DNA of 37,640 bases from a virus: UHGV virus genome UHGV-1707198. The stretch is one strand, 5' to 3'. The first letter of the stretch is position 1. Every line of letters starts with the position of its first letter. The notes beneath the pieces were generated by a model. It did not search any database and was not told the DNA's origin. It saw nothing but the letters and a program-made list of their open reading frames with translations. Position numbers and translations under genes: made by a program. Shown here one piece after another: positions 17,877 through 34,192 of this stretch.

Positions 17877-18545
17877 ATGACCAAGATCTTTGTGGTTGGC
17901 GGCACAAAGGGCGGGCCTGGCAAATCCACCGTTGCCCAGCAAATTGCCGTTTGCCTGAAAGTCAAAAAGAAGAAGAAGGTTTATATCACTGATATAGATA
18001 TTCAGCGCACGACAACAAGCTGGTGTGAAGACCGTCGACAGAACGAAGACCTTGAGCTGATTCCTTTTGCATACGTTCAGGATGACATCATTAAGCACCT
18101 AAAATCGCTTCAGGGTAGAGCTGAGTTTGTAGTGGTAGATGCTGGTGGCTTTGACTCCGAAATTCAGCGACAAGCGATGCTGATGGCCGACGTTATCATT
18201 ATCCCGCTTCGTCCTAAGCGTCGTGATTTGAAATCTCTGCGTGACATTGATCCTATTATCGACAATGTTCGTAATGTAAACGATAAAGTGAAGGTCCGCG
18301 CGGTCATGAACCAGTGCCCGGCTTTGCCATCACAAGTGTCTCGCATTCTGGCGGCTAAAGAGATTGTTGAGACGTTTGGCATCGAGTCTGCGCCAGTCAA
18401 TCTATATAACCGCAACGTCTATGATGATGCGGAAGAGTCTGGTCGTTCTATCTTTGAAATGACCGGTAGCGAGCGCGACAAAAAGGCGGAAGCCGAGTTT
18501 GAAGAATTTGTAGATTATCTGTTGAGTCTGGAGGAAGAAGAATAA
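17877..18545 (+). CDS. ParA/ParF-type partition ATPase
   Basis: 222 aa; N-terminal deviant Walker A (VVGGTKGGPGKST); small size typical of type Ib partition ATPases; AAAGGGA ribosome-binding site. Confidence 0.7.
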   Translation: MTKIFVVGGTKGGPGKSTVAQQIAVCLKVKKKKKVYITDIDIQRTTTSWCEDRRQNEDLELIPFAYVQDDIIKHLKSLQGRAEFVVVDAGGFDSEIQRQAMLMADVIIIPLRPKRRDLKSLRDIDPIIDNVRNVNDKVKVRAVMNQCPALPSQVSRILAAKEIVETFGIESAPVNLYNRNVYDDAEESGRSIFEMTGSERDKKAEAEFEEFVDYLLSLEEEE

Positions 18546-18904
18546 TGTCCATGAAAATGGGTGACCTAGCAAAGCGCAAAGAGCCTGATGCACCGGCTAA
18601 GAACACAACTCCTTTGCGCCAACCAGTCAGACCACAGGGACGCCCGACTCGTGGCAAAGAGAAAATTAAAAGCCGCACAATGTCACTGGAAGACGAATAC
18701 TTCGAACTGCTGGAGATGATGAAGTTCATCCCTCGCTTCGAGAAGTTCACTCGTTCTGACGTGATTCGAGCAGCCATTTTCCATCTGGCAGAGAAGTCAC
18801 CGCAGGAAATCGAGGACATCGTGAAGCTTAACGAGGCGATCACAGCTGCCGACGTTACGATGCGTACCGATGAAATTAAACGAGAGTTGATGAAGAAAGG
18901 TTGA
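18545..18904 (+). CDS. putative partition DNA-binding protein (ParG/ParB-like)
   Basis: 119 aa, start overlaps the ParA stop (TAATG); basic N-terminus; function inferred from operon position. Confidence 0.4.
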   Translation: MSMKMGDLAKRKEPDAPAKNTTPLRQPVRPQGRPTRGKEKIKSRTMSLEDEYFELLEMMKFIPRFEKFTRSDVIRAAIFHLAEKSPQEIEDIVKLNEAITAADVTMRTDEIKRELMKKG

Positions 18905-18908
18905 TTAT

Positions 18909-18937
18909 ATTGGGCGTTTGTTACGCCCAATATATGA
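18909..18937. promoter_or_regulatory. perfect 12-bp-arm palindrome (terminator or operator)
   Basis: TATATTGGGCGT-ttgtt-ACGCCCAATATA, read directly; lies between the partition operon and the KAP NTPase gene. Confidence 0.4.
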
Positions 18938-18955
18938 ATTAAAGGATTGATACTA

Positions 18956-20650
18956 ATGGAATCGATAGAATCATTTCTAAAAAATTTTCTAGTTTCAGAT
19001 CATCGGGTTGCCGTCATAAAAGGAGATTGGGGCGTTGGTAAAACTCATTATTGGAATAGTTTTTATACTAAGCATTCTGAAGGATTAGATTTTAATGCAT
19101 ATTCGTATGTTTCTTTGTTTGGGGTTAACTCTATTGGTGATATTAAAAAAACTCTTTATCATTGTGCCACACCAATTAATGAAAAGAAATATAAAGAACT
19201 AATTTTATCTGAAACGGATCGAACTATGATTCGTTATAGAAATGGGTTTTGGGGATGGTTGAAATACAACTCCTTGTCAAAATTTTTAATACATTTCGGA
19301 AAGATCGATTTTTTTGGGTTCAAAACAGATAACCTGCTGTCATCTCTTGAGTATAAATTTGTTAATAATTATTTGGTTTGTATTGATGATGTTGAAAGAA
19401 AAGGTAATTCGCTAGAAGTTAAAGAAATTATGGGGGTAATTGATGAATTAGCAAGAAGAAAAGGTTGCAAAGTTGTTCTAATTTTAAATGAAGATAATTT
19501 ACATGATGAAACTGCAAAAAAACAGTTTTTAGAGTACAGAGAAAAAGTAATTGATGTCGAAATAAAATACGATCCTACGCCTGAGAAGAACTTACGTAAA
19601 GTTTTTTATGAAACTGATTCTGATTTTCTTTTGTTAAAAGTCTTAGCAAATGACTTAGGCATTAAAAATATCCGTATATTAAATAAAATAAAAACATCTC
19701 TGGTTAATCTTAGGAATGAGCTAAGCTTGGCAGAGGATAAGGTTAGAGAAAGCTTTATCAATAGATTGGTTCTGTTTTCAGTGGTTTACTATTCTGGTGT
19801 TCCAGGTGTTGATTATGCCTTGTTTAAAGAATCAATTAAAAACATACATGTATTTGATTACATGTTAGATGATAAAAAGGATGATTCTGTATATTCATTT
19901 ATTAATAGTCTTGATGTTATTTATGAACGAGCGGAAATTGCTTTCGATGATGACATAGATTTTTATCTCAAGAATGGTTATCTTTCTACTGAAAGCAATA
20001 TTCGAGGTATAATAGAAGAAAAAAATAAACAATATAAAGAACACAAGGCTTTATGTGATGTTAACAATGTTTGGGATATTTTTAGTGACTCATTCAAGGA
20101 CAATGAATCTGAGTTTATTTCTAAGATAAAATGTGTAATTAACGACAATCTTTCACACATACCTGTTGCTCACTTCATAGGCTTGATTGATATCTTAAAT
20201 AGATTGGAGATTGATTGTGATAGTTATATAGAGGCATATGCAGATGCCTTTGTTAGCCAAGATGATGCTTATACTGCTTTTCGGAATTTGTATGTAGAGA
20301 TATTTGGTAACGAAAAGTTAGGTCTGCTAATTCAAAAAAAATTGATGGATAAGAAGCCTGAAGAGACTAATTTAGAGAATGTTTTATACAAAATAATTGA
20401 AGGCAAATTTAATCATAGTGACATAGCATATCTTAACAGTTTCTCTGAAGATGATTATTTAAAGTGGATATTATCCCGCAATCAGGATGCTTTGGATTTA
20501 GTGAGAAAGGGGTTGCTCAGATTCAAAAGTATGCAAGAACTAACAGAAGAACAGCAAAAAATCACGAATAAAGCAATAGGTGCATTAACGAAACTGGCCT
20601 CTAGATCAAGTCTTAACAAACTACGTGTGAGCAGATTGCTTAATAATTAA
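18956..20650 (+). CDS. KAP-family-like P-loop NTPase
   Basis: About 565 aa from the ATG at 18956 (AAGGA ribosome-binding site 9 nt upstream). Walker A GDWGVGKT fits the G-x-W-G-x-GKT KAP signature; Walker B-like LVCIDDVER about 110 residues later. Strongly AT-rich and Lys/Asn/Ile-rich, unlike neighbouring genes. Confidence 0.55.
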   Translation: MESIESFLKNFLVSDHRVAVIKGDWGVGKTHYWNSFYTKHSEGLDFNAYSYVSLFGVNSIGDIKKTLYHCATPINEKKYKELILSETDRTMIRYRNGFWGWLKYNSLSKFLIHFGKIDFFGFKTDNLLSSLEYKFVNNYLVCIDDVERKGNSLEVKEIMGVIDELARRKGCKVVLILNEDNLHDETAKKQFLEYREKVIDVEIKYDPTPEKNLRKVFYETDSDFLLLKVLANDLGIKNIRILNKIKTSLVNLRNELSLAEDKVRESFINRLVLFSVVYYSGVPGVDYALFKESIKNIHVFDYMLDDKKDDSVYSFINSLDVIYERAEIAFDDDIDFYLKNGYLSTESNIRGIIEEKNKQYKEHKALCDVNNVWDIFSDSFKDNESEFISKIKCVINDNLSHIPVAHFIGLIDILNRLEIDCDSYIEAYADAFVSQDDAYTAFRNLYVEIFGNEKLGLLIQKKLMDKKPEETNLENVLYKIIEGKFNHSDIAYLNSFSEDDYLKWILSRNQDALDLVRKGLLRFKSMQELTEEQQKITNKAIGALTKLASRSSLNKLRVSRLLNN

Positions 20651-20680
20651 GTATTCATGACCTGTTTCTGTATATATAAA

Positions 20681-20700
20681 TAATAAGTAACTTATTAAAT
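20681..20700 (+). promoter_or_regulatory. recurrent motif, distal copy upstream of gene 20831
   Basis: TAATAAGTAACTTATTAAAT, a partial dyad. Confidence 0.35.
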
Positions 20701-20797
20701 ATACGGAAGCAGGTCTTTCAAAAGATACCCACCAGAACAACTCCCTTCCGTTTCCACTTCCAAAAACTGCCACCAATCGCTATCATCAGCTCATTGC

Positions 20798-20819
20798 GAT
20801 AAGTAAGTAACTACCTACC
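20798..20819 (+). promoter_or_regulatory. recurrent motif, proximal copy upstream of gene 20831
   Basis: GATAAGTA-agtaac-TACCTACC. Confidence 0.4.
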
Positions 20820-20830
20820 AGGTGAGCCAC

Positions 20831-21571
20831 ATGAGCCAAATCTTTTTCGACACCATCGACAACGACCAGTACGACTTCATGACAGAGTGGAATACCGCTG
20901 TTATGGATAAGTGGGTTGCTGAAAACATTGGTTTGTCGCGCTGCAAAGACGAGGCTGAACTCTTCGATACGAAGTGGTTTGATTACCGCGACATGCATCC
21001 TCTTATGGCCACCTGTCTGTTTACGGAGGCATACAAACGTCAGTACTCAAATATCATGCTGACGCACGGTCGTGAACACTTTGAAACAGCTCCGTTCACC
21101 ACCGGGTTAAAACGCCTGCCTTATCAGGAGTTGTCGACTGCCAATAAAACGTCTCTATGGAAAGCACGCCAGTTTGCTGACCGCTATTGCTGCTCATACG
21201 ACTACTTTATCTCCACCGTTCTTTCCGCAGCTGCACGACGGCTGTGGGACAAGCTGCCGCGCCCACAGCATTTATGGCAGCCAGAACTGATTGAGATATT
21301 TGAAGAGAAATTAGCCAGACGCGCAACAACCCGTCTGGATGACTCTCTTGTTAGCTTTAAGCATATGGGAGACATGCAGTTCAACCCGATTCAGGAAAGC
21401 TATTTTGAGTGGATTCTGGAGCGTTTGCGCACCATCCCTCGCAGCAAGCGCATACGCGCAATTTTCTCCGCTATCTGGCTAATGGAAATCGTTCCAGAGC
21501 GCCTTATTTCCGCCCACTTTCCAGAAGAACTGGAAGAAGCACGGCGGTTTATTGATCCCCTATCTAATTAA
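20831..21571 (+). CDS. hypothetical protein (possible replication accessory factor)
   Basis: ATG at 20831 with AGGTGA ribosome-binding site; precedes the helicase gene; no motif recognised. Confidence 0.4.
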   Translation: MSQIFFDTIDNDQYDFMTEWNTAVMDKWVAENIGLSRCKDEAELFDTKWFDYRDMHPLMATCLFTEAYKRQYSNIMLTHGREHFETAPFTTGLKRLPYQELSTANKTSLWKARQFADRYCCSYDYFISTVLSAAARRLWDKLPRPQHLWQPELIEIFEEKLARRATTRLDDSLVSFKHMGDMQFNPIQESYFEWILERLRTIPRSKRIRAIFSAIWLMEIVPERLISAHFPEELEEARRFIDPLSN

Positions 21572-21614
21572 CTAATACTAGAAAACAATTTGTTTAAAAA
21601 ACAAAGGAAAGCAC

Positions 21615-22955
21615 ATGACCGAACTTTGCCATACAGGACGCGGGCTGTCCGAAGAGTTTGATGAAGATTTCCAGAACAGACTGACGGCATATTTTTGTCG
21701 TGATCACGAGTTTCTTACTCGTGCGGGAGATCTGGTTGTGCCTAGCCAATTTGCCAATGCGGCCAATGCCATATTGGTTAATATGGTTTCGGGCTATTAC
21801 CGTATGTACAAGAGCGCGCCCTCTTCATCTGCAATTCTGGATATGCTTAAGCGTGCGAAACGCGATAAGACTATCCGTGAGGAACTATTCGCCGATGTTG
21901 TTGCTGCGTTTAAGCGCATTCTTGCAGAAAAATTGTCCGATACCTCGTACATGGTTGACCAGGTATCAACCTTCGCAAAAAGTGTAGCGTTTGATGATGC
22001 TCTGATTAAGGCTGCTGAACTGAAAGAGAAAGGCGACTTTCAGGGGGCGATGGCAATCATGGCCAAGGTTCAGCAGATTGGATCGAACGAAGCGACCGGA
22101 ATCTATGACTACTACACCTCCGCAAGTGAGCGATTGAAAGCGCGTGAATATGAGGCTTCAGAGGAGTATGTACCAAACAGTATTACAAGTGGACTCCCTC
22201 TTCTCGATAGGTTGCTGTACCAAAAAGGCTGGGCAAAGCGCGAAATGGTGCTCTTCATGGGGTTCGCTAAATCCGGTAAATCGACCGCAATGGGTGAGTT
22301 TTCCATAAACGCAACACTTGCTGGCTACAATGTTCTGTATCTCTCGCTGGAGGTTCACACCACCATTTTATCCGACCGTTTTGATGCAAGATTGTCGGAG
22401 ACAGAAATGTCCAAGCTGGTGGAACGGCGCGATGAGGTTCATCGTAAGTTGGCAGAGTTGGGAGCCACAAAGGGGATTGGTAGTTTGTGGGTGGTTGAGC
22501 GTCCGTCAGGAAGTATGTCACCGGCAGATCTGGACCGTATGCTTAACAGCATGAAAGCCAACGGCATGGTACCTGACATGGTTGTTGTCGACTACGCAGA
22601 TTTGATGCGTGCCAGTTATGACCTTCGTGATGATCGCGCCAACATTCGTAGTATCTACACCGATTTACGTGCTCTTTATGACAAGCATAACGTTGCTGGG
22701 ATCACGGCATCGCAGACAAACCGTGAAGGTGGCGCGTCAGAAGTTGCCACAATGATGCACGCTGCCGACAACATCGAAAAAGTACGTATTGCTGACCTGG
22801 TAATAACGATCAACAAAACCGAAGAAGAAGAAGCGAAAGGAGAGGCTCGTCTCTACTTTGCTGGTTCACGTAACCAGCAGGGAGGGATCAGCATTCGCGT
22901 TAAACAAAACCTCGAACAAATGCGCTTCATTGAGCGAATCTTAGACGTTACCTAA
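21615..22955 (+). CDS. DnaB-like replicative helicase
   Basis: 446 aa; Walker A GFAKSGKST in the C-terminal half and Walker B-like VVVDYADLM, the arrangement of DnaB/RepA-type helicase cores. Confidence 0.55.
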   Translation: MTELCHTGRGLSEEFDEDFQNRLTAYFCRDHEFLTRAGDLVVPSQFANAANAILVNMVSGYYRMYKSAPSSSAILDMLKRAKRDKTIREELFADVVAAFKRILAEKLSDTSYMVDQVSTFAKSVAFDDALIKAAELKEKGDFQGAMAIMAKVQQIGSNEATGIYDYYTSASERLKAREYEASEEYVPNSITSGLPLLDRLLYQKGWAKREMVLFMGFAKSGKSTAMGEFSINATLAGYNVLYLSLEVHTTILSDRFDARLSETEMSKLVERRDEVHRKLAELGATKGIGSLWVVERPSGSMSPADLDRMLNSMKANGMVPDMVVVDYADLMRASYDLRDDRANIRSIYTDLRALYDKHNVAGITASQTNREGGASEVATMMHAADNIEKVRIADLVITINKTEEEEAKGEARLYFAGSRNQQGGISIRVKQNLEQMRFIERILDVT

Positions 22956-22964
22956 AAAATAAGC

Positions 22965-22981
22965 GTGGAGAACACCTCCAC
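22965..22981 (+). terminator. perfect hairpin after the helicase gene
   Basis: GTGGAG-aacac-CTCCAC, extendable to AGCGTGGAG...CTCCACGCT. Confidence 0.35.
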
Positions 22982-23036
22982 GCTTGATTCATTGGTGAAA
23001 CAACTTTTCTTTTGCCAAACCACAAAAGAAAAACAC

Positions 23037-24218
23037 ATGAGCCTTTATGTTATATCAACATTTAGGTTGGTCACAATATTGCCTGTTAAAAGTGGAATTA
23101 TCGTGAGCGAGCTGAAAGAGCTAATTACCGAATTAGATTTTGAACAATGGTTGGATACTGAAGGTATCGTTTATCGACGTGGAGGCGTGAGTACTCGCGG
23201 TCGTGAAGTGAATATCAAGGAGTGTCCGGTATGCGGCAGCTCCAACTGGAAGGTATATTTCAATCTGACCAGTGGCGTCGGCAAATGCTTCGCTGGTGAT
23301 CATCCCGAAGAGATTCAGTTCAATAAGCTGGTCTTCCTCAAGCACTACAGCGGTAAATCACGACGACAGTTCGAGGAATATGTGCAGAACGCTCTTCTTT
23401 CCCAGGGGTGGGCACCAAAGAAAGAAGAGCTAGTGCTTGCAAGCACAGTCGAGTTAGAGGGGCCAGTTGCACTCCCTCGTCATTACGAGCTTCCTATAGA
23501 TGGCCGTCTTCCAGACTATCTGGTTGAACGAAACATATCACCTGAAATGGCAAAGTATTTTGACCTACGATACTGCGTCGAAGGCAAGCACGCTTATGTA
23601 GATCCGTATACAGATCAGGTAAAAGGGCAGATATTCGATATGCGAATACTGATACCGGTTTACGATCTGGATGGGGTAATGAAGACATTTCAGGGACGAG
23701 ACATTACCGGTACAGCAGAACGCCGCTACCTCTTTCCTATGCAGCTTCCAGCTTCAGGTAAGTTTCTCTACAACGGCCATAATGCAGTCGGCAAACAGAC
23801 TGTAGTTGTCTGTGAGGGGGCGTTCGATGTTATGGGGGTTAAACGAGCTATTTTTGACGAAGAAACATTACGTGATTACGTGGAACCAATAGGAACGTTC
23901 GGGATGCATCTATCTGGTAACACCACTCAGGATGCAGAAGATCAGTTAGGCGCGTTCCTGACGCTCAAGGCGCGTGGGTTACGTAATGTGATCATGATGT
24001 GGGATAGTGAAAAGCAAGCTATACGCAACACTATGGCCGCAGCCAGGCGACTGAGCAGTATTGGTCTTAATGTGAAAATTGCATGTTTGGGCGAGGAAGG
24101 ACTCGACCCCGGCGATGCGACCCCGGGGCAGATTATCAAAGCCTACTATTGCGCAAAACCTTACTCACGACAGCTTGAACTCTTAAGCAAGGTGAAAGGC
24201 ATTGCAGCACTAGTTTGA
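23037..24218 (+). CDS. DnaG-like DNA primase
   Basis: Cys/His zinc-finger-like motif CPVCGSSNW...CFAGDH and a TOPRIM-like VVVCEGAFD segment. Start uncertain: the ORF track begins at GTG 22965 inside a hairpin, so ATG 23037 or GTG 23103 is more plausible. Confidence 0.55.
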   Translation: MSLYVISTFRLVTILPVKSGIIVSELKELITELDFEQWLDTEGIVYRRGGVSTRGREVNIKECPVCGSSNWKVYFNLTSGVGKCFAGDHPEEIQFNKLVFLKHYSGKSRRQFEEYVQNALLSQGWAPKKEELVLASTVELEGPVALPRHYELPIDGRLPDYLVERNISPEMAKYFDLRYCVEGKHAYVDPYTDQVKGQIFDMRILIPVYDLDGVMKTFQGRDITGTAERRYLFPMQLPASGKFLYNGHNAVGKQTVVVCEGAFDVMGVKRAIFDEETLRDYVEPIGTFGMHLSGNTTQDAEDQLGAFLTLKARGLRNVIMMWDSEKQAIRNTMAAARRLSSIGLNVKIACLGEEGLDPGDATPGQIIKAYYCAKPYSRQLELLSKVKGIAALV

Positions 24219-25355
24219 ACCAGTATTAGTCACATACACATTGACCGAAAATGATTTAACTTCTGTATTGAAGTTGTCAGTCATTACCGCGAGGTAGGCA
24301 TTCTTGGTATCTCTGAATTGCTTCAGGATGATTTGAACGTTATCGGTGCAAACAAACGAGGTAGCCAGATTGCCTCCTTTCTCTGAAAAATCCTTCAGGA
24401 AGGTGCAGTCAACTTTGCCATCATTAGCGGTGAAGGTAGCATCATCACCCTGCCAGGTAAATGTAGCGTTAACGCCCTTATCAATGGATTTAGCAATAAG
24501 TCGCTGGGTGGCGGATTTTGTTTTGGCTTTGGAAGCCGGCGCTCGATATTTGCCGCTTTCTTTCAGTTCTGCAATGTAATCGCAGCCTCTTTTTTCTCCT
24601 TTATCGCAAGCAGTCTGATAAAGGTCGGCTGCTTTTTTATAGTCCTTTTTTACACCTTCCCCATTCTCATACATAATGCCAAGATTGGTTATGGCGTCGG
24701 CGTTTCCAAGTTCCGCTGCCTTTTTATACCACTTAACTGCTTCTGCATCATTGCGTTTAACGCCTAACCCATCATCGTATAGTATTCCTAATCCTATCAT
24801 AGCTTCTGAACTGCCTTGGTCTGCCGCCTTTTTGTAATAAGTAAAAGCCTTTTTATAATTCTTTTTAACGCCTTTACCATATTGGTAATACGCCCCAAGA
24901 ACTGAAGTTGCTTTAACATACCCGGCATCAGAGGCTAGTTTGAAGTATTTAATGGCGAGTGCATGATCTACTTTACCAAGCATCCCCTTTTGATAAATAG
25001 CACCAAGATTGTTGTAGGCTCTACCTTCACGAGCATCCCCCGCAAGTTTGTAGTACTCAACAGCTTTATTTAGGTCTTTATCTACACCCTCGCCAAATGT
25101 GTACATAACTCCAAGTGCATAATATGCTACTTTATCTCCCTTTTCTGCAGCTAGATCAATCCACTTCTTGGCCTCAACTACATCCTTATCAAAACCATTG
25201 ACACCATCAAAATAATTTGTACCTAACTCACTTTGTGCTGCGGTATCCCCTGCGGTAGCGGCTTCTATCAGCGTTTGTTTATTGTCTGCGTTAACGAATC
25301 CAGAGTTAAAAAGCAAAGTTAATGCCAGCAACGATGAAGATTTTATGTATTTCAT
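24210..25355 (-). CDS. secreted Sel1-like repeat (TPR-like) protein
   Basis: Start taken at MKYIKSS (plus-strand CAT at 25353..25355), giving a Sec-type signal peptide. At least six repeats of the form A..WYKKAAEQG...A...LG.MY..G.GV.KD, characteristic of Sel1-like repeats. Confidence 0.6.
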   Translation of the reverse strand: MKYIKSSSLLALTLLFNSGFVNADNKQTLIEAATAGDTAAQSELGTNYFDGVNGFDKDVVEAKKWIDLAAEKGDKVAYYALGVMYTFGEGVDKDLNKAVEYYKLAGDAREGRAYNNLGAIYQKGMLGKVDHALAIKYFKLASDAGYVKATSVLGAYYQYGKGVKKNYKKAFTYYKKAADQGSSEAMIGLGILYDDGLGVKRNDAEAVKWYKKAAELGNADAITNLGIMYENGEGVKKDYKKAADLYQTACDKGEKRGCDYIAELKESGKYRAPASKAKTKSATQRLIAKSIDKGVNATFTWQGDDATFTANDGKVDCTFLKDFSEKGGNLATSFVCTDNVQIILKQFRDTKNAYLAVMTDNFNTEVKSFSVNVYVTNTGSN

Positions 25356-25587
25356 GTTTTTTTTCTGTTGATATAGGATGAACAGTTTAGACGCGGCAAG
25401 CGTCAAGTGTGCGAAAAAGGGTACTTAAATTTAGTTAATATGTCAGCTTTGTTGATTTAGTTTATGGTCGGTAAAGTTACTGGGAAACTAATAACCATAA
25501 GAAATAGTACGCCATTTAATTATTGTGGCACTGCTCGTGTTTTGATTAACTAATACCTGCGATAAATATAAATAAAGGGAAGCCAAC

Positions 25588-26001
25588 ATGAGCAAAAATA
25601 AGCTGATTTTAACAGGAGCTTTATTGTCTTTGTTTGCTTTAGTGGGGTGTAAGCCTACAGACGAGAAGGCTATTGCTCTGGGCCAACAAGCAATTGCGGA
25701 TGATATGAAAGATCCCACGTCGGTGATGTTTAGGAAAGATAAGTTTGTCAGGACTGATCATGACGATGGGAGTGTGACAGGCTTTGTGTGCGGAGAATTG
25801 AACGCCAAAAATGGCTTTGGTGCATACGTGGGCTATCACTCATATGTTGTTGAACTCGAAATGAAGCCAAAGGGCATGTTTTCGAAAGGGGTGGTATACA
25901 AAATCCTATCGAAGTCGTTGGCACCTAATGATCCTCATGACTTACAGCGTTATAAGCAGGTCTACAGAAAGATGTGCAACAGCGAGGCTGTAGCTCATTA
26001 A
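25588..26001 (+). CDS. lipoprotein
   Basis: 137 aa; signal peptide with lipobox LVGC; AAAGGGA ribosome-binding site. Confidence 0.5.
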   Translation: MSKNKLILTGALLSLFALVGCKPTDEKAIALGQQAIADDMKDPTSVMFRKDKFVRTDHDDGSVTGFVCGELNAKNGFGAYVGYHSYVVELEMKPKGMFSKGVVYKILSKSLAPNDPHDLQRYKQVYRKMCNSEAVAH

Positions 26002-26008
26002 TGGTGAA

Positions 26009-26903: not shown

Positions 26904-26934
26904 GCTCTCTGTGTGTCGTTTTTTACGCAAGTAA

Positions 26935-26949
26935 TGATAGGTAAGCACA
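26935..26949 (+). promoter_or_regulatory. recurrent motif, copy upstream of gene 26971
   Basis: TGATAGGTAAGCACA. Confidence 0.4.
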
Positions 26950-26970
26950 AGATTATTTCTGGCGGTAATT

Positions 26971-27441
26971 GTGAAAGCTGATTTGTCAAAAATCCCTTCT
27001 ATTTCAGGAAATAACAGTTATTCACTTCGTTGTGAGGAAGTAAAGATAAACGGTGAGTCGGCATATTGCAGCTATTCCGTTTGCCAGCACACCATTCTTG
27101 CCTTCAAAGAAAACCGTCTTCCTCGAACTTCTTTCCAGTCGTGCGCAACCGCTATTAAAGCAGGCAAATGCAAGGCGTTAAAAATGATGGTTGAAGAGAT
27201 TCGTAAAGGAGAATCTCTGTATTTTGAAGATATGACCGCACTCATTAAGGAGGTTGAAGAACGGAATAAACAAGCCAGAACTATAAAACGAAAACGTGAC
27301 GGTGTAACGATTAATAGCATGGTTAAGAAGAGCGCCACATCACAAACAGCGATCACTGACGTGTATGCGGCGTTGCTTGAAGAAACAACAAAAGAAACAC
27401 ATGAGCAAATCGATCAACATATGGAGGCAAAACAACAATGA
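26971..27441 (+). CDS. hypothetical Cys-containing protein
   Basis: 156 aa, GTG start; several Cys in the N-terminal 75 residues (C-x12-C-x4-C ... C-x7-C); stop overlaps the ligase start. Confidence 0.4.
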   Translation: MKADLSKIPSISGNNSYSLRCEEVKINGESAYCSYSVCQHTILAFKENRLPRTSFQSCATAIKAGKCKALKMMVEEIRKGESLYFEDMTALIKEVEERNKQARTIKRKRDGVTINSMVKKSATSQTAITDVYAALLEETTKETHEQIDQHMEAKQQ

Positions 27442-28760
27442 AAAAGTTGATCGCACTTAAGCATAAGCTGGACGAAATGAAAGCTATGGGAACCAATGCA
27501 AAAAAAGAGGCATTGGCCAACATGGATGACTTTGAACAAAGCATGGTTTCATTGATGCTCAACCCTTTCATCCGTTTTGGGGTAAAGAAATACAAAGTGG
27601 CAGAGCCGCTTAGTGAGTCCGTCCCAAGTGACGAAAAAGCCATTGATATACTGAATAAGCTGGCCTCTCGCGAGCTAACGGGGAACGCAGCAATAGCAGC
27701 TGTTGAGTCTATCGTGGCGTCAATGTGCGCCGATGGGCAGGACGTGTTCCGTCGTTTCCTCTTAAAAGACCCGAAAGCAGGTGTTGGGATTAGCCTATGC
27801 AACAAGGTTTTTGAAAATCCCATTCCGAAATTCGAGGTGCAGCTGGCGTCACCGTATAAAGAAAAAGGCGACAAATACCCCTTCAAGCCAAATCCTAAAG
27901 CAAAATGGCCGATGATTGGCAGTCTTAAGCTCGATGGTTTGCGAGTAATTTGCGAGGTTATTGTTGACGAGGAAGAGGTTAACTTCCTTTCTCGTACTGG
28001 TAATCCAATCACGTCTCTCGATCACCTAAAGCCAGCAATGCTCGAATTAGGCAAACTTTCAGGCCACAAACACATCTTCTTCGATGGTGAAGGAACAGCC
28101 GGTTCATTTAACCAGTCCGTATCTGCATTGCGCAAAAAGAACGTGCAGGCAATTGGCGCTATTTATCATGTTTTCGACTTCTTCCTACCGGAATGGCGGG
28201 CACAGGCTAAATCCAAAGAGTATGCAAAGACAGGTATGAAGCTGAAAGAGCGCCTGGCTATGCTGGTGGCGTTGTTTAAAAACGATCGCAGTGAAGGCTA
28301 CGCACAAGACATTCACCTGCATCCGTTCTATATCATCCATAGCCACGAAGATTTCATCGAACGCTTCATGAAACGCCTGGACGATAACGAAGAAGGGGAG
28401 ATGGGCAAAAATCCGAACTCTGTTTACGAGTTTAAACGTACCCGCAGCTGGTGGAAGTTAAAAGACGAAGATTCAGAAGATGGTGAAATTATCGACTTTG
28501 AGCCGGGCGACCCGGACTCTGGTTTTGCCAACACGCTTGGAAAAATTGTTATTCGCCTTGAAAACGGTGTGATTGTTCGTGCGAGCGGCATTAAGCATAA
28601 ATATCTGGACGAGATCTGGAACAACAAAGAGAAGTACCGTGGTCGTATTGTCGAGGTTCATTGTCACGAGAAAACGCCGGATGGCAGCTTACGCCACCCA
28701 CGACTGAAATGGCCGCGTTGCTTACGCGATACAGAAGATCGAATCGGAGATAAAGAATGA
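27438..28760 (+). CDS. ATP-dependent DNA ligase
   Basis: 440 aa; KLDGLR matches nucleotidyltransferase motif I (KxDG); FFDGEGTAG and the C-terminal EVHCHEKTPDGSLRHPRLKW region are consistent with motifs III and VI. Confidence 0.65.
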   Translation: MKKLIALKHKLDEMKAMGTNAKKEALANMDDFEQSMVSLMLNPFIRFGVKKYKVAEPLSESVPSDEKAIDILNKLASRELTGNAAIAAVESIVASMCADGQDVFRRFLLKDPKAGVGISLCNKVFENPIPKFEVQLASPYKEKGDKYPFKPNPKAKWPMIGSLKLDGLRVICEVIVDEEEVNFLSRTGNPITSLDHLKPAMLELGKLSGHKHIFFDGEGTAGSFNQSVSALRKKNVQAIGAIYHVFDFFLPEWRAQAKSKEYAKTGMKLKERLAMLVALFKNDRSEGYAQDIHLHPFYIIHSHEDFIERFMKRLDDNEEGEMGKNPNSVYEFKRTRSWWKLKDEDSEDGEIIDFEPGDPDSGFANTLGKIVIRLENGVIVRASGIKHKYLDEIWNNKEKYRGRIVEVHCHEKTPDGSLRHPRLKWPRCLRDTEDRIGDKE

Positions 28761-28936
28761 TGCTCGGCTGGATGATTGCATTTTTAGCAGTTGGTTTTTT
28801 CATCGGTATTGTGGTGATGTCCAGTTGCATTAATGACTACATTAAAAACGGTGTTATAGAAAGACGAGGTCGCATTTATCGCATTGTAGAAATAACCAAC
28901 ACCGTGAAGGAGATTAAGGATGATCGTATTAAGTAA
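28757..28936 (+). CDS. small membrane protein (59 aa, below the ORF-track cutoff)
   Basis: Found by manual translation: MMLGWMIAFLAVGFFIGIVVMSSCINDYIKNGVIERRGRIYRIVEITNTVKEIKDDRIK. ATG overlaps the ligase stop; one predicted transmembrane helix. Confidence 0.35.
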   Translation: MMLGWMIAFLAVGFFIGIVVMSSCINDYIKNGVIERRGRIYRIVEITNTVKEIKDDRIK

Positions 28937-29135
28937 ACGGGAGAAGGAAACGCTTCATGAAATCAGTAAGTGGCCGGAGTTCCCTGAGTACTGGAAGCCT
29001 AAAACGCGAGCTAAGTTAGAGCGGTTAGGGTTGGTTGCAAACGTTTCTGAAACGAAGTGTTCGGCCAACTACCAGTTAACTGATAAAGGGAAAGTATTGC
29101 TACAGCAATTAGTAGAATCAGGAGTGTTAAAATGA
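28920..29135 (+). CDS. hypothetical protein
   Basis: 71-aa soluble ORF with AAGGAG ribosome-binding site; translationally coupled to its neighbours. Confidence 0.35.
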   Translation: MIVLSKREKETLHEISKWPEFPEYWKPKTRAKLERLGLVANVSETKCSANYQLTDKGKVLLQQLVESGVLK

Positions 29136-29285
29136 TTCCATACATCTCATTAGCTTTTATGGGTGGCTTCCTAATCGGCTTCGGCATCTGTCGTGATTTA
29201 ATTAAGCAGGAACTTAAAACCAAAACACTGTGCATCGGAAAGCGTGTGTATCGGGTAGTTCATGAAACAAAGGTTAGAAAATGAG
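29133..29285 (+). CDS. small membrane protein (50 aa), paralogue of 28757..28936
   Basis: Manual translation MIPYISLAFMGGFLIGFGICRDLIKQELKTKTLCIGKRVYRVVHETKVRK; shares the hydrophobic helix and the R-x-Y-R-[IV]-V-x-E-T motif with the 59-aa ORF. Confidence 0.35.
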
Positions 29286-29571
29286 CAATTTAACTTCTTG
29301 GGACTGGTGGTTGGCCACCTATTTCTTAGCGGCCGGAGTCGCATTCGCCTTTTACGTAGGTCAGTTAGTCGTAAAACTGTTGCTGATTAAATTTGCTAGT
29401 CATAAACGTATCGATGATGGTCTGTGGCGTCTTGGCACCCTGGTGGAAACTCGCTACGGGCAACTTAAGGAGAACGAAACCATTACTATCCAGGCGAAAC
29501 GATTCACTGCCACCATCACAAGAACACCTAGTCGTAGAGTGGCCTTGATCAAAAAAGTCACAACCGAATAA
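29281..29571 (+). CDS. small membrane protein
   Basis: 96 aa; ATG overlaps the upstream stop (ATGA); N-terminal transmembrane helix WWLATYFLAAGVAFAFYVG. Confidence 0.4.
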   Translation: MSNLTSWDWWLATYFLAAGVAFAFYVGQLVVKLLLIKFASHKRIDDGLWRLGTLVETRYGQLKENETITIQAKRFTATITRTPSRRVALIKKVTTE

Positions 29572-29580
29572 AAATACAAT

Positions 29581-29602
29581 GATAAGTATTTACTTACTTA
29601 TC
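29581..29602 (+). promoter_or_regulatory. recurrent motif, dyad copy at the head of the non-coding leader before the tRNAs
   Basis: GATAAGTA-tttact-TACTTATC; the 8-bp arms are exact reverse complements. Confidence 0.5.
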
Positions 29603-30349
29603 TTTTGTGTATAAGATGACTTTGTTTTCGTTGAGACGCGACTGTTTGAACTTAAATACAAGTGCAAACGAAGAAGTCTATCTGGCAGTAGCCTAATAAG
29701 CCAAACACCAGCGAGGTCAGTTTCCAGCCTCGTTACCGAAATGGGACACACTGAGCGAGTGTGATTGCAGAACGCAGGAGGGAACATGAATGTTCCCTCC
29801 GATGAAGTAACAGAATGGGCGGTTGGTATATTTTCAACTCCATATGACTCCCGGATTCTTAGCCACTGACCGCCCATCCTGTTACGTCATTTTGTTCAAT
29901 TATGTCGTTTATACTGGGTTAAAAAGCGGCGACGTAGCCCGGCTGGTATGGTTAGCCAGCACACAACGTTGAGGCCATTACATTTTTATCAATTCTAAGG
30001 TTCTATTCACAGAGATACCGGCGAGCGTTGATATGTAACATGTTGGGCAAACATTCAATCGGAGTAGTGGCCTCAACGTTGTGAAGACGGGATTGTTGTG
30101 TAGGTTTAACCACTGTTGCCATTGGTGCCTGTTTTCACAACAAATGATTCCATACATCACATTGTATAAATTACAAAGTAGGTGCTGTCCTCAGAAACAT
30201 CATCTACTTAAAGATTTTGCCTTCTACTATTGAGCGAAGTCGAAAGCGTCTGGCACTAACGAAAAGTGCAAGTAGCGGTGCGTTTCCTGGCAGAAACTAA
30301 ACCGTCGCGATTGGCACTGTTGAGTAATAAATACTGGCAGTGCTGAATT

Positions 30350-30424
30350 GATGGTGTAGCTCAGCGGTAGAGCAGTTGGCTGTTAACCAACTGGTCGGTG
30401 GTTCGAATCCACCCACCATCGCCA
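30350..30424 (+). tRNA. tRNA-Asn (anticodon GTT)
   Basis: Cloverleaf folded by hand: acceptor GATGGTG/CACCATC, D-arm GCTC/GAGC, anticodon stem GTTGG/CCAAC with loop CTGTTAA, T-arm GGTGG-TTCGAAT-CCACC, encoded CCA. Confidence 0.85.
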
Positions 30425-30429
30425 ATTTA

Positions 30430-30516
30430 GGGGAGTTAGTCCGTAGAGGTAGCGGTGTAGACTGTAAATCTACTGTCATGGCGACTCGGGTGGTTCGACT
30501 CCATCACTCCCCACCA
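30430..30516 (+). tRNA. tRNA-Tyr (anticodon GTA), long variable arm
   Basis: Acceptor GGGGAGT/ACTCCCC, anticodon stem GTAGA/TCTAC with loop CTGTAAA, long variable arm, encoded CCA. Confidence 0.8.
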
Positions 30517-30520
30517 AATT

Positions 30521-30596
30521 GCCGGTTTAGCTCAGTTGGTAGAGCAGTCGTTTTGTAAGCGAATGGCCAGCGGTTCAAGTCCGTTAACCGGCACCA
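30521..30596 (+). tRNA. tRNA-Thr (anticodon TGT), probable
   Basis: Acceptor GCCGGTT/AACCGGC, D-arm GCTC/GAGC, T-arm AGCGG-TTCAAGT-CCGTT, anticodon loop TTTGTAA; the anticodon stem has one G-A mismatch and one G-U pair, so identity is less certain. Confidence 0.65.
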
Positions 30597-30604
30597 ACAC
30601 AACA

Positions 30605-30680
30605 GGTAAGAGCATTGGGCGAATCGGCGATACTGACCCACAAGGCCGTAAATCGATAGAGTCAGACCAGTGCTCTTACC
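30605..30680 (+). ncRNA. 76-nt hairpin element in the tRNA spacer (not a canonical tRNA)
   Basis: 10-bp terminal stem GGTAAGAGCA/TGCTCTTACC enclosing 56 nt; a hand-fold as a tRNA fails (no D-arm or T-arm pairing). Related stems occur at 30681..30739 and 30811..30912. Confidence 0.3.
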
Positions 30681-30916
30681 GTTGTGAGGAAGTGCAGCTC
30701 TTTGAAGCAACCAGAAGATAAGCATCTGGCTTCACAACACAACGATAATATCATTACGGTTAATCGTCGTTCATGTGCACAATGACTGGTCGAAAGGTAG
30801 TGATCTTACCATTGTGATGAATGCACAGGCTGATGTGCCGCAACTACAGTAGTGCGCGCTTTGCGGGGCTTGCTACAACCCTGTGTCGGAGTTCAGCACC
30901 GACCATCACAATAGCT

Positions 30917-31003
30917 GGAGAGTAGGGAGCATGGTGCTCAAGCGGTCTTGAAAACCGTCCCATTGTGCAAACGATGATGGTTCGATTCCATTACTCTCCG
31001 CCA
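30917..31003 (+). tRNA. tRNA-Ser (anticodon TGA), long variable arm
   Basis: Acceptor GGAGAGT/ACTCTCC, anticodon stem-loop GCGGT-CTTGAAA-ACCGT closely resembling E. coli tRNA-Ser(UGA) as recalled, T-loop TTCGATT, encoded CCA. Confidence 0.75.
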
Positions 31004-31157
31004 GACACAGCGTTGAGCGGTTTGGCCTTTTAATCAACTCGATTAAGACTCCGCTAACATAAACCAGACCGCTCAACGCTGTGATAGATAATTACGGCAG
31101 ACGTTCTTAACCATAGCTTGCTAACATCCTAGCAACACTTTTTTCAGCGCAAAATTC

Positions 31158-31180
31158 AAAGGGGCTTCGGCCCCTTTTTT
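31158..31180. terminator. bidirectional rho-independent terminator
   Basis: AAAGGGGC-ttcg-GCCCCTTTTTT, with A-run and T-run on either side; sits between the tRNA cluster and the convergent minus-strand gene. Confidence 0.55.
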
Positions 31181-31195
31181 GTTGAACAGTGCAAT

Positions 31196-32458
31196 TTACT
31201 TTACATAGTCGCCCAGTTTTAATATTTCGCGCTTATATTCTTTAACCATGCTACTGGATTCAGTATAAATTCGATTTAAAAGATTATCGCTATCTTTATT
31301 CTCATTTATCTTAATGAGTGATAATTTAAATTCATAGTCATCAAATGCCACAATCAAATGGTGGCCTGGGATTATATCTTCGTCACTCTTGAAGTATATA
31401 TCTTCAAGTATGTAATCTAGTTGATTAGATTTTCTTTTCTCGATGTAATCTTCAGCCATAGCTATTACATCATTCCTGTCATTTAACCTGTTTTTTTCGG
31501 AAGGCACATCTTCGTAATGTTGCACGATTGAACAACCAATAAGGCGTGGGATGTAAACGTCAAAATGAGTAACTCTATCATTCGCGGTTTTAAGTAGTTC
31601 CTCAAAGTAGTTTCTTACATGTAAAGGCAACTTCTCAAAGTAATCATTAATTATAGGAGAACAAGGAGTTTTATAATTCATAAGAACCGACGGTACGAGC
31701 TTTGGGTCTCGAAACATCCAGTCCCTTTTAACGTCCGATGGAACATAATAACTTTTAATGATATTATCAAAATAATTTATCATTCGAGATTTGAATATTT
31801 TGTTGAATCTAAGGTTTATGAATGCATCCAGATAAGGCATATCTGAATAAGCATCATCAAAAAATATTTCATCATTGAAAAAATCATATTTATTTAATAA
31901 ACAACACAGTTTTCCCGAATTAATATGTTCACAATAATCGATCTTTAATCCAAAGATAGCAATGATCAACTTCATCTGAGGTGGGATTTTGAAAATTAAT
32001 TGTGACACATACGCTCTTTTTTCCTTTAGACATTCCCCATCAATATAAAATGAACTATCCACATACTCAAAAATATTAATAATATGCTTCACATACTGTA
32101 TTACCTCATGCTGTTTTACCAATGGGTAATATAGTCTATGTAACTCATCGCTGTTTAAATTAATTTTGCGTTTATCGATAATTTGTTTTGCAAGAAGACA
32201 TAGCTCATCATGTTGATTTAATAAGGAATCAAACCATTGTTTAAATGCACTCTTTCGCATTTCGAACAATGATTCTGTTGTTAATTGAAGGGCTGAAAAA
32301 GCTGCTTTTGCACTTTTTCTCGCTTCGTAGGCATTCCATGCTGTTGCTATAAAAGCAAATGCTGTAGCCAATGTTCCAACAATTTGACCATTTAAAACAA
32401 CCCAATCCCAAAAAATCACGGTGAGCAGTAGTATAATAATGAAAATTAAAAAAGGCAT
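31196..32458 (-). CDS. AT-rich membrane-anchored protein of unknown function
   Basis: 420 aa; N-terminal two hydrophobic helices (FLIFIIILLLTVIFWDWVV and VGTLATAFAFIATAW), then a large Asn/Lys/Tyr/Phe-rich domain. Opposite strand to nearly everything else; very low GC. Confidence 0.5.
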   Translation of the reverse strand: MPFLIFIIILLLTVIFWDWVVLNGQIVGTLATAFAFIATAWNAYEARKSAKAAFSALQLTTESLFEMRKSAFKQWFDSLLNQHDELCLLAKQIIDKRKINLNSDELHRLYYPLVKQHEVIQYVKHIINIFEYVDSSFYIDGECLKEKRAYVSQLIFKIPPQMKLIIAIFGLKIDYCEHINSGKLCCLLNKYDFFNDEIFFDDAYSDMPYLDAFINLRFNKIFKSRMINYFDNIIKSYYVPSDVKRDWMFRDPKLVPSVLMNYKTPCSPIINDYFEKLPLHVRNYFEELLKTANDRVTHFDVYIPRLIGCSIVQHYEDVPSEKNRLNDRNDVIAMAEDYIEKRKSNQLDYILEDIYFKSDEDIIPGHHLIVAFDDYEFKLSLIKINENKDSDNLLNRIYTESSSMVKEYKREILKLGDYVK

Positions 32459-32567
32459 GTATGTATTTCACTCTACTAACTATAAAATATTAGGGTAATG
32501 TTAACCAAACAATGCCTTAATTAATAGATTGATCGAGGCTTTAATAACTTTATAATGCAGACTGCAA

Positions 32568-32589
32568 AGATAAGTATGCACATACCTAT
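32568..32589 (+). promoter_or_regulatory. recurrent motif, copy upstream of the glutaredoxin-like gene
   Basis: GATAAGTA-tgcaca-TACCTATC, one mismatch from a perfect dyad. Confidence 0.45.
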
Positions 32590-32632
32590 CTTCTTTGTGA
32601 GTAAAGTTGCATATCAATTCTATGAGGTAACA

Positions 32633-32878
32633 ATGACGATCACTATCTACGGACGAGATAACTGCTCATACTGCAAACGTGCGGTCGAGCTAGCGAAGCA
32701 ACTAAAGGGACATGGCTACGGTGATTATGAGTACATCGACATCACCACTGCCGGTATCGACAAGGAAAAACTAAGTGAAATTGTTGGTAAACCGGTAGAG
32801 ACTATCCCCCAGGTGCTGATCGAAGGCCAGCCGATTGGCGGATACACAGAACTGGCTGCATACGTCAGCACCCTCTGA
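32633..32878 (+). CDS. glutaredoxin-like protein (NrdH/Grx-type)
   Basis: About 81 aa from the ATG at 32633 (GAGGT ribosome-binding site); ITIYGRDNCSYCKRA contains a CxxC active-site motif after a beta-strand, and the C-terminal TIPQVLIEGQPIGGY is typical of the glutaredoxin fold. Confidence 0.6.
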   Translation: MTITIYGRDNCSYCKRAVELAKQLKGHGYGDYEYIDITTAGIDKEKLSEIVGKPVETIPQVLIEGQPIGGYTELAAYVSTL

Positions 32879-33088
32879 TTTTAACGGCTCACAGGAGCCG
32901 TTTTTATTCCCACCAAACTCACTCCCATTTCCCTTAAAATTCAAAAAACAACGTCAAAATGATTCCATACCTACTATGTATGGAATCATTGCTGAAAATG
33001 AGTTACTTTTACTCTTGATCCTATAAGAATCTATGCCTAATATACTGTTTACTTATACAGTGCATCGGCGTAACTCGGTGATTGTCAT

Positions 33089-34192
33089 ATGAAAAATAGC
33101 TTTGACAGAGCACGCGCTGCGGAGAACACCTCAAAAGAGGCGATAGAGTATCTCGAAAGAGCATCTCAAATGCAGGCCGTTATGATCTCCCAGGTCAGCA
33201 ATGACATGAGATTCTCGGACGCATTCATGTTATTCACTCGCTTATCTCTGCTGATAACCAGACGTCGGCCAGAGATCGCTGTTCATTGTATTTTGATACA
33301 TGTTTTGCCGCACATTGCCGATGTAAAAGTAAGTGACATTAATAGGTTCATGGTGAACCAACTGGTCAACCCACTAATACTGGATGGCAAAATTGTTATG
33401 GGCCGCCGCGTTTTCTCTCTGATGAAGCAGTTCCTTAGCTGGTGCGCCTTCCAGGGGATGATAGACGTGTCACCGTTAAACGATATGTCACTTAACAAAG
33501 TTGCCGGTGGCGCAAAGCCCACACCTCGCGAGCGGAAGCTGACCGACGCAGAGGTATGGGTGTTCTGGAATATATGGGACTACTTCAATGTGTGTGCTGG
33601 TACAAAATGGGCGGCCAGGCTATGTCTTGTATCCGCAAGACGACCTGACGAAGTACTGCGGGCTAAAAAAAGTGAGTTCAATCTTAAGCGTGGGGTTTGG
33701 AATCAAGGCAAGAGGAACAAATCTGCCCGTGAGCATTCTCTGCCTTTAAGCTCATTAATGCGCACTTGTATTGAAGAGTTGTTCGAATATGGTAAAGACA
33801 GCCAGTGGCTCGTGCCTTCGAATAAAAAAATCGGGAAAGACCTTCCTATGTCTAAAGTGGCAATAGCCCAGGCATTACGTCGTATTCTGGAACGACCAGA
33901 ACTGATGGAGCTTGAGCCATTTACACCCCGAGATTTGCGCCGTACTGCGCGTAGTTACTTCCCAGCATTAGGCATAAGCCAGGAGGTATCACGTAAAATC
34001 ATGAACCACAGTCTTGAGGGGATAGATCGGGTCTACGACCGGCACGATTATATGGACGAGATGCGAGACGCCTTAGAAAGTTTCTCGACGTACATCGCAT
34101 CAATCGTAGAGCAACCGGATTTAGACGAAATTGACCACAAATTTAAGGGAGATCGTCTATCAACAGAGCTTATTCGTGTAAATTTTTCATAG
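33089..34192 (+). CDS. tyrosine recombinase / integrase (P4-like catalytic domain)
   Basis: C-terminal motifs RDLRRTARSY ... IMNHS ... RVYDRHDYMDEMR match the R-H-R-Y catalytic signature and the Y-x-R-x-D-Y-x-[DE]-E-R tail of P4-type integrases. N-terminal region is atypical and the ribosome-binding site is weak. Confidence 0.65.
   Translation: MKNSFDRARAAENTSKEAIEYLERASQMQAVMISQVSNDMRFSDAFMLFTRLSLLITRRRPEIAVHCILIHVLPHIADVKVSDINRFMVNQLVNPLILDGKIVMGRRVFSLMKQFLSWCAFQGMIDVSPLNDMSLNKVAGGAKPTPRERKLTDAEVWVFWNIWDYFNVCAGTKWAARLCLVSARRPDEVLRAKKSEFNLKRGVWNQGKRNKSAREHSLPLSSLMRTCIEELFEYGKDSQWLVPSNKKIGKDLPMSKVAIAQALRRILERPELMELEPFTPRDLRRTARSYFPALGISQEVSRKIMNHSLEGIDRVYDRHDYMDEMRDALESFSTYIASIVEQPDLDEIDHKFKGDRLSTELIRVNFS

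Follow-up and report, generated by a model that had tools for sequence, protein, structure and literature searches.

The DNA considered here is a stretch of 37,640 nucleotides (nt) of UHGV virus genome UHGV-1707198, which we refer to, at its full length, as the window. A reading made from the letters alone (hereafter, the sequence-only reading) had picked out, between positions 17,877 and 34,192, a ParA/ParF-type ATPase with a small partner and a P4-like tyrosine recombinase with a convergent helix-turn-helix (HTH) regulator, and had proposed that a large phage-plasmid carries them all. Every feature that it named was found again, and in the same place, by open reading frame (ORF) listing and family searches, and the four genes at the center of the question are these:

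17877-18545, plus strand: ParA-type ATPase, 222 amino acids (Pfam, PHROG)
18545-18904, plus strand: small partner of ParA, 119 amino acids (phrog_5111)
33089-34192, plus strand: tyrosine recombinase (int), 367 amino acids (PF00589, PHROG "integrase")
34187-34573, minus strand: HTH regulator (PHROG transcriptional regulator, 1e-11)

The explanation of the whole that we favor, with moderate confidence, is a phage-plasmid that has a type Ib partition system and, in the recombinase, a lox-like resolvase or circularizing enzyme. The parts of this explanation differ in strength, and we weigh them separately.

The first part is the identity of the element. Over region 17000-35000, the window is 96-97.5% identical in nucleotide sequence to phages Cyrano and CMS-2020a and 80% identical to Salmonella phage SSU5. 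The same region matches 1,390 plasmid records, the best of which are circular, non-mobilizable Escherichia coli plasmids of ~110 kb at 95-99% identity (pECOH89 and pTW10722_119 are among the top matches), and gene order is common to the window, Cyrano, SSU5, and Klebsiella phage pJN2-26. In both sequence and gene order, the window is like the SSU5/pHCM2/pECOH89 elements, and it carries structural and lysis genes beside plasmid maintenance genes on one replicon; these two traits place it in the SSU5 supergroup of phage-plasmids described by Pfeifer et al. (PMC7969092). Based on these matches, the window is almost certainly a 37.6-kb stretch, running from the tail genes to a CobT-like gene, of an E. 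coli phage-plasmid of the SSU5/pHCM2/pECOH89/Cyrano type. Such an element is a temperate siphovirus, the prophage of which is a low-copy circular plasmid of ~110 kb. For example, Cyrano (pLF82), a producer of virions with ~5.5 copies per cell, responds to ciprofloxacin with a 39-fold induction (PMC9928086), and a published survey found SSU5-type elements to be exclusively extrachromosomal (PMC9600943).

Our own counts, taken over 5,426 complete E. coli genomes, agree. The par locus occurs in 264 genomes at 265 places, all 265 on plasmids; the recombinase gene occurs in 252 genomes at 254 places, likewise all on plasmids (254/254). Because par and int are found only on plasmids in these genomes, the phage-plasmid reading is supported, and the proposal of a large element kept outside the chromosome is borne out by these counts together with membership in the SSU5 group. 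One point weighs on the other side: both ends of the window are phage DNA and no host junction lies within it, so that the window alone cannot show plasmid versus integrated state or circular closure. Partition genes and recombinase together are the normal, published make-up of the group, and the element is already known; their co-occurrence therefore adds nothing as a discovery. What is new here are details of the recombinase, of a candidate recombination site, and of a LexA-type box.

The recombinase and its candidate site

The int product matches PF00589 at 40.6 bits (cut-off, 27.1) and the PHROG "integrase" family at 5e-47, which confirms the tyrosine recombinase; its HTH neighbor is indeed convergent, and the two genes overlap by 6 nt. 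In an alignment of homologues at 24-87% identity, R185, K211, R284, H307, and the nucleophile Y316 are kept, i.e., the domain and the catalytic set of the tyrosine recombinase superfamily are present save for the first histidine. The ratio of nonsynonymous to synonymous substitution rates (dN/dS) is 0.04-0.06, and internal stops are absent from the window gene and from nine orthologues; on these grounds of sequence, int is not a pseudogene. With P4/CP4-57-type integrases the protein shares two domains, PF22022 (core-binding) and PF00589 (catalytic), as well as the motifs DLRRT and VYDRHDY. The arm-binding domain PF13356 (DUF4102), which is present in relatives at 24-34% identity, is absent from the window recombinase and from all homologues of at least 43% identity. 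An AlphaFold2 (AF2) model (predicted local distance difference test score [pLDDT], 83.8) has a helical N terminus and superposes best on residues 75-356 of lambda Int, with Tn1549 Int, Xer, IntI, and Cre following among the Foldseek matches. From these domain patterns, we infer that the recombinase descends from P4/CP4-57-type integrases via loss of the arm-binding domain. The atypical N terminus that had been remarked upon is thus real, given that PF13356 is missing here and present in distant homologues. The label "P4-like" holds for descent and fails for the domain that defines it: PF13356 was tested for and is absent, and the recombinase is therefore not an arm-binding P4-like integrase.

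If the enzyme does not have arms to bind, on what might it act? The features that bear on this question are as follows:

32958-32990: lox-like 12-7-12 palindrome, AATGATTCCATAC-CTACTAT-GTATGGAATCATT, ~100 nt 5' of int
29132-29146, plus strand: extra exact arm copy ATGATTCCATACATC, making up the first five codons, start included, of a 50-amino-acid ORF
30144-30158, plus strand: extra exact arm copy ATGATTCCATACATC, intergenic, before the transfer RNA (tRNA) cluster
33015-33043, plus strand: putative int promoter TTGATC-17-TAATAT, with 8/12 consensus matches
33043-33062: LexA-type box TACTGT-N8-ACAGTG (CTGT-N8-ACAG at 33045-33060), overlapping the int promoter
34604-34647, minus strand: HTH gene promoter TTTACA-16-TAATAT, with the 14-bp palindrome GGTAAGTGCTTACC (34604-34617) at the start site

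The palindrome at 32958-32990 is unique in the window (0 expected by chance). We compared it across 12 elements from seven genera (Escherichia, Citrobacter, Klebsiella, Kluyvera, Chimaeribacter, Buttiauxella, and Yersinia, the last represented by Yersinia pestis pMT1): all have identical 12-nt arms, the 7-bp spacer varies, and the palindrome always lies 46-100 nt 5' of the int start codon. The spacer is found in both orientations relative to int, as would suit a site for which polarity counts only with respect to another copy. Beside homologues that are 43-47% identical, the arms read ATGACTCCAGAC/GTCTGGAGTCAT, that is, two positions have changed symmetrically with the 7-bp spacing unchanged. 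These arms occur in Providencia and Xenorhabdus phage-plasmids and in a 507-kb Pantoea vagans replicon (CP028350.1; 507,680 bp), where a 46%-identical recombinase homologue at 5953-7140 has the co-varied palindrome 19 nt upstream and is flanked by TonB-receptor genes, without phage genes in the neighborhood. The Pantoea case suggests that enzyme and site together serve plasmids in general. In total, the palindrome has the makings of a Cre/loxP-like site, namely, a 12/13-7-12/13 layout, an asymmetric spacer, a position near the gene, and arms that co-vary with the enzyme clade.

Based on these observations, we lean, by a modest degree, toward the recombinase being a resolvase or circularizing enzyme that would act on 32958-32990 as P1 Cre does on loxP. 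In this model, a plasmid dimer, which holds the site twice, would be resolved to monomers by recombination between the two, so that partition can work, and an infecting genome whose terminal redundancy supplies two copies would be circularized in the same way. The broader proposal is an uncharacterized, SOS-controlled, Cre/loxP-like system, derived from a P4-type enzyme and serving dimer resolution and/or circularization in SSU5-type phage-plasmids and non-phage megaplasmids, with at least two arm specificities (ATGATTCCATAC and ATGACTCCAGAC); we would put the chances of this proposal at about even. No description of the function or site of the recombinase was found in the searchable literature, the coverage of which is incomplete, such that further papers may comment.

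Could the recombinase instead be a true integrase that provides an alternative, chromosomal lysogeny, with ParA serving the episomal phase only? Its descent from P4/CP4-57-type integrases, its place in a lysogeny-type module with an adjoining repressor-like HTH gene near tRNA genes, and the existence of contigs of >200 kb with close recombinase homologues would all suit such a role. The counts, however, are against it: 0/254 int copies and 0/265 par copies lie on chromosomes, and the palindrome, which is found in 252 of the E. coli genomes (the same number as carry int), is never chromosomal. A chromosomal attB was rejected on the same evidence, the site being absent from all of the chromosomes searched, with the limit that a shorter core identity would have escaped detection. 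Furthermore, the arm-binding domain, which is the source of integrase directionality, is missing, no excisionase-like gene was recognized next to int, and published surveys find such elements only extrachromosomally (PMC9600943). We therefore regard a true integrase as very improbable. Of the two roles offered in the sequence-only reading, multimer resolution fits an arm-less enzyme with an adjoining lox-like site and no recognized excisionase, whereas an integrative lifestyle is unsupported.

How might int be controlled? The motif CTG-N10-CAG lies 27-29 nt 5' of the ATG, with variable centers, in 9/9 relatives of the clade of ≥82% identity, and from this motif and its overlap with the promoter we infer that int is under LexA control. 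Transcription of int would then start from a weak sigma-70 promoter overlapped by the LexA box, and its level should rise in the SOS response. The promoter of the HTH gene and its GGTAAGTGCTTACC are kept in four relatives, the motif is unlike the arms of the Int site, and a half-match related to GGTAAGTGCTTACC lies at ~34666-34679; GGTAAGTGCTTACC and this half-match are probably repressor operators. The Cyrano homologue of the HTH gene, CYRAN_45, is annotated as a putative repressor and is expressed in the lysogen (PMC9928086), and the window gene is a probable lysogeny repressor.

A natural deletion speaks to the same module. Relative to the window, SSU5 lacks 30426-35037 (4.6 kb), which comprises tRNA-Tyr/Thr/Ser, cargo, the Int site, int, the HTH gene, and a 70-amino-acid ORF, and no int homologue was found anywhere in the SSU5 genome. 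SSU5 is described as virulent (PMC5427195). Because this virulent phage does without both genes, lytic growth requires neither int nor the HTH gene, and the missing HTH gene fits a lysogeny repressor, as its Cyrano homologue is annotated. Loss of the stretch probably explains the lytic behavior of SSU5.

Several observations weigh against a lox-like, SOS-controlled system. The int promoter is weak and falls under the threshold of our promoter scan. The CTGT-N8-ACAG match is the sole one in the window, but 0.65 would be expected, and 49/100 shuffled sequences have at least one; the LexA-type box is, moreover, absent from more distant relatives. Across the entire recombinase clade, the first catalytic histidine is an arginine (R281). 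The two additional copies of ATGATTCCATACATC at 29132 and 30144 are unexplained by a simple lox-like model. Both copies point the same way as the left arm at 32958, and both are kept in Cyrano, Citrobacter, pJN2-26, and pTW10722_119 (in SSU5, the first is kept and the second has one mismatch); the copy at 29132 is invariant in five relatives, synonymous positions included. If the lox-like reading is true, these copies might be accessory binding sites.

Finally, the palindrome, instead of being a place of crossover, could serve as an operator to which Int itself or a different protein binds. In its general form, this alternative holds that a recombinase-fold protein or other factor uses the palindrome mainly to regulate the int/repressor module, or else that the enzyme serves some other rearrangement, such as integron-like capture of cargo. 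The site lies just 5' of the int promoter, and the recombinase-fold repressors YopR and SroF are among the fold matches (E ~5e-3). But the catalytic residues, including the tyrosine nucleophile, are kept under strong purifying selection and would be unneeded by a repressor, and crossover sites typically have such a 12-7-12 layout, with a spacer that is free to vary. As for the HTH repressor in particular, it is unlikely to use this palindrome as its operator, given that the conserved promoter of its own gene has a different one, GGTAAGTGCTTACC.

The case for a rearrangement comes from a variable cargo slot at 31181-32939, which has the same boundaries versus three relatives and which here holds a 420-amino-acid orphan gene and the glutaredoxin gene. 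In all three comparisons, the slot stops 18 bp before the Int site, and an arm-less recombinase with SOS control and a site beside it is reminiscent of integron integrases. Against this, the left edge of the slot is the terminator of the tRNA operon, the right edge is outside the palindrome and its spacer, neither edge has a site-like motif, and there is no trace of cassette insertion; integron-like cassette capture at the Int site is thus unsupported. We consider an operator or a rearrangement of another kind unlikely, and a resolvase or circularizing enzyme remains the reading with which we proceed.

The partition genes and their candidate control region

The parA product matches MipZ, AAA_31, and CbiA in Pfam and "ParA-like partition protein" in PHROG (4e-51), and its best solved relatives are ParF of TP228 (4dzz) and a 214-amino-acid chain deposited as ParA (5u1g), both at 1.2e-10. 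With its 222 amino acids, a deviant Walker A motif (K11-GGPG-K16-S), and no N-terminal HTH/DNA-binding domain, it has the motif and size of a type Ib protein. Against NCBIfam ParA_partition, it scores 2e-33 and 115.7 bits, under the cut-off of 180, and by this measure the protein is a relative of that family and not an equivalog.

The ATG of the partner gene overlaps the parA stop codon as TAATG, and the ATPase with a small partner proposed for 17877-18904 is upheld by the PHROG, Pfam, and ParF matches and by this overlap. The partner matches phrog_5111 and no Pfam family, and its own family is confined to SSU5-like elements (25 clusters; 18 of 1.84e9 representatives in a profile search). Nothing significant was returned by Pfam, Protein Data Bank (PDB) sequence, PDB profile, or Foldseek searches, and no annotated remote relative turned up among the 1.84 billion representatives of the profile search. 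The Cyrano annotation of this gene as a "RelE/ParE toxin" is unsupported by the family, PDB, Foldseek, and profile searches. In the family alignment, an invariant N-terminal MGDLAKR is followed by a variable linker and then an invariant basic stretch, and there is a segment resembling a ribbon-helix-helix (RHH), SRTMS-EDE...TRSDVIRAAI, at which two family members match Pfam RHH_1 below threshold (E 0.005 and 0.11); the window partner itself matches the RHH family aCcr1 at 2e-4. Its AF2 model has a pLDDT of 63 and two C-terminal helices more than ParG. Both parA and the partner gene are under strong purifying selection (dN/dS, 0.04-0.05). Based on its position and these features of its sequence, the partner is presumed to be the centromere-binding and ATPase-stimulating protein of a type Ib system, in which a ParF-like ATPase and a small, probably RHH partner would segregate the plasmid.

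Where might such a partner bind? The non-coding features that we consider are these:

17784-17843: conserved non-coding block of 60 bp, candidate par promoter, operator, and/or centromere
21583-21595: second copy of AAACAA-N-TTGTTT, 32 nt 5' of the DnaB-like start codon
35104-35116: third copy of AAACAA-N-TTGTTT, imperfect, 32 nt 5' of the CobT-like start codon

In the block, 17/20 columns are invariant per 20-nt bin versus ~8-15/20 in the adjoining coding DNA (71 unique relatives), and the block is nearly identical in SSU5 and pJN2-26, the genes of which are only 76-80% identical. It contains the palindromes TATAT-CAC-ATATA (17813-17825) and AAACAA-G-TTGTTT (17829-17841) as well as a TTTACA hexamer. 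The second of these palindromes recurs elsewhere: AAACAA-N-TTGTTT has 9 matches in the window at ≤2 mismatches, versus 1.85 expected, and it lies 32-48 nt 5' of the start codons of the parA, dnaB-like, and cobT-like genes at positions kept in relatives. The position of the copy at 21583-21595 is kept in Cyrano, pJN2-26, and pTW10722_119, and the copy upstream of cobT is perfect in SSU5, pJN2-26, Citrobacter, Kluyvera, and pMT1. AAACAA-N-TTGTTT may thus be a shared operator of the three genes. Judged by its conservation, the block at 17784-17843 is likely the par control region and centromere. We posit that the partner would bind the block and perhaps also the same palindrome 5' of the helicase and cobT-like operons; that AAACAA-N-TTGTTT itself is what the partner binds is a guess. 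A 12-bp perfect hairpin at 18906-18934 was considered as a partition site and rejected, as it is not kept in Cyrano, SSU5, or pJN2-26.

Two points count against a partition locus of the standard kind. Partition-site repeats had been anticipated near 17760-17876 and 18905-18955, but the repeat search returned chance-level short repeats only, and it found no centromere repeat array next to the par operon. In addition, the evidence for an RHH fold of the partner, resting as it does on sub-threshold matches and a low-confidence model, is weak. Is it possible, then, that the ATPase acts like MipZ and MinD in positioning or inhibiting some structure of the host, or else serves phage development, with the segregation locus outside the window? 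The best Pfam match is MipZ, and some RefSeq records say "division plane positioning ATPase MipZ"; the family score falls short, as described above, and no repeat array was found. Cyrano has a second MinD-like gene, CYRAN_99 (PMC9928086), and virulent SSU5 keeps parA despite its loss of the repressor. On the other hand, among solved homologues the plasmid partition ATPase ParF is the nearest, the operon is laid out as is typical of type Ib, with an overlapping gene for a small basic partner and, upstream, a control region that is highly conserved, and the locus is in essentially all E. coli members, all of which are plasmids. We judge a non-partition role improbable and hold with good confidence that the par locus is a partition system.

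The rest of the window

Beside the genes discussed above, the window contains the following:

98-16184: tape-measure, minor tail, J-like, tail-fiber, endolysin, and spanin genes
16551-17728: two ORFs of 139 and 257 amino acids, without family matches, 5' of parA
18947-20650: KAP-family P-loop nucleoside triphosphatase (NTPase)
21615-22955, plus strand: DnaB-like helicase (family searches)
22965-24218, plus strand: DnaG-like primase (family searches)
24210-25406, minus strand: Sel1-repeat protein (E 1.5e-53) with a signal-peptide-like N terminus
27438-28760, plus strand: ATP-dependent DNA ligase (family searches)
30350-31003, plus strand: tRNA-Asn, Tyr, Thr, and Ser (ARAGORN)
31196-32458, minus strand: orphan gene, 420 amino acids, 34% G+C content (GC)
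32633-32878: GrxA glutaredoxin

The ligase, helicase, primase, glutaredoxin, and tRNAs on which the proposal of a phage-plasmid had drawn are all present, beside tail and lysis genes, and the CobT-like gene comes after the HTH gene. Upstream of parA, Cyrano has a KacT/KacA toxin-antitoxin pair in place of the two ORFs at 16551-17728, and homology to most relatives starts only at ~17770. The KAP NTPase gene, directly 3' of the par operon, is low in GC (30-36%), relatives carry other genes there, and its product matches the PADLOC candidate defense family PDC-S49 (1e-21). The Sel1-repeat gene lies between the primase and ligase genes, and the annotation of related plasmids calls its product a "tetratricopeptide repeat protein." Four inverted repeats of 14-22 bp (29802-29890, 29962-30083, 30605-30680, and 31006-31083) lie in non-coding DNA around the tRNA cluster, two of which have CACA(A/G)CGTTGAG in common; they could be structured RNAs or processing signals. 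An Rfam scan of the window matched the tRNAs only, and these inverted repeats were without a match.

Comparison with known systems

Recent reviews describe phage-plasmids as typically lacking integrases. A very common group, the phage-plasmids of E. coli, Klebsiella, and Salmonella, nevertheless keeps a conserved recombinase under selection. Together with the LexA-type box, the candidate site and the way in which it co-varies with the enzyme form a testable model of how these carriers of resistance genes might avoid multimer-driven loss. Should both enzyme and site prove active, the known lox-like recombination specificities would grow by one or two.

The closest relatives of the window are the members of the SSU5 supergroup (SSU5, pHCM2, pECOH89, pLF82/Cyrano, pKpn, and pMT1), which share 80-100% identity with it, are circular at ~110 kb, and have the same order of tail genes, par, replication genes, tRNAs, int, repressor, and cobT. 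The window differs from them only in cargo, i.e., the KAP NTPase, the 420-amino-acid orphan, tRNA-Tyr, and the genes 5' of parA. SSU5 itself is unlike the window in being without int and repressor.

For the recombinase, the nearest functional parallel would be P1 Cre/loxP, in which an arm-less tyrosine recombinase of a plasmid prophage has a single nearby site. In both loxP and the window site, a short asymmetric spacer separates two inverted elements of 12-13 bp, and the roles proposed here for the window recombinase, dimer resolution and circularization, are by analogy identical to those in P1. In sequence, the two enzymes are unrelated, the fold alone being shared (Foldseek E 0.02-0.15; ~11% identity); the window enzyme may work like Cre but does not belong to the Cre family. 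In addition, the spacer of loxP is 8 bp versus 7 bp in the window, and the window has the LexA-type box and the P4/CP4-57 descent. P4/CP4-57-type integrases are the closest sequence relatives of the window recombinase outside its clade, from which it differs in lacking PF13356, in having R281 in place of the histidine, and in having neither a tRNA-derived att site nor a chromosomal copy. The integron IntI/attI systems are like the window in having an arm-less recombinase and a site 5' of the gene beside variable cargo, and their LexA-controlled promoter would have its counterpart in the putative int promoter with its LexA-type box; they are unlike the window in that no attC-like sites or cassette boundaries occur at the window site.

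For the partition genes, the parallel is ParF/ParG/parH of TP228. Both systems have a small Walker-type ATPase without an HTH domain and a control region 5' of the ATPase gene, and ParG and the window partner are alike in being encoded immediately downstream and in having a flexible basic N terminus and, probably, an RHH fold. The window partner, in contrast, has no detectable similarity to ParG and is longer at 119 amino acids, and there is no parH-like array of tetramer boxes. For the dispersed palindromes, omega of pSM19035 and KorB of RK2 offer a precedent, as both are partition-site binders that regulate several operons via scattered copies of a motif; the occurrence of AAACAA-N-TTGTTT before parA, dnaB, and cobT in the window resembles this arrangement and may, by analogy, have a similar basis.

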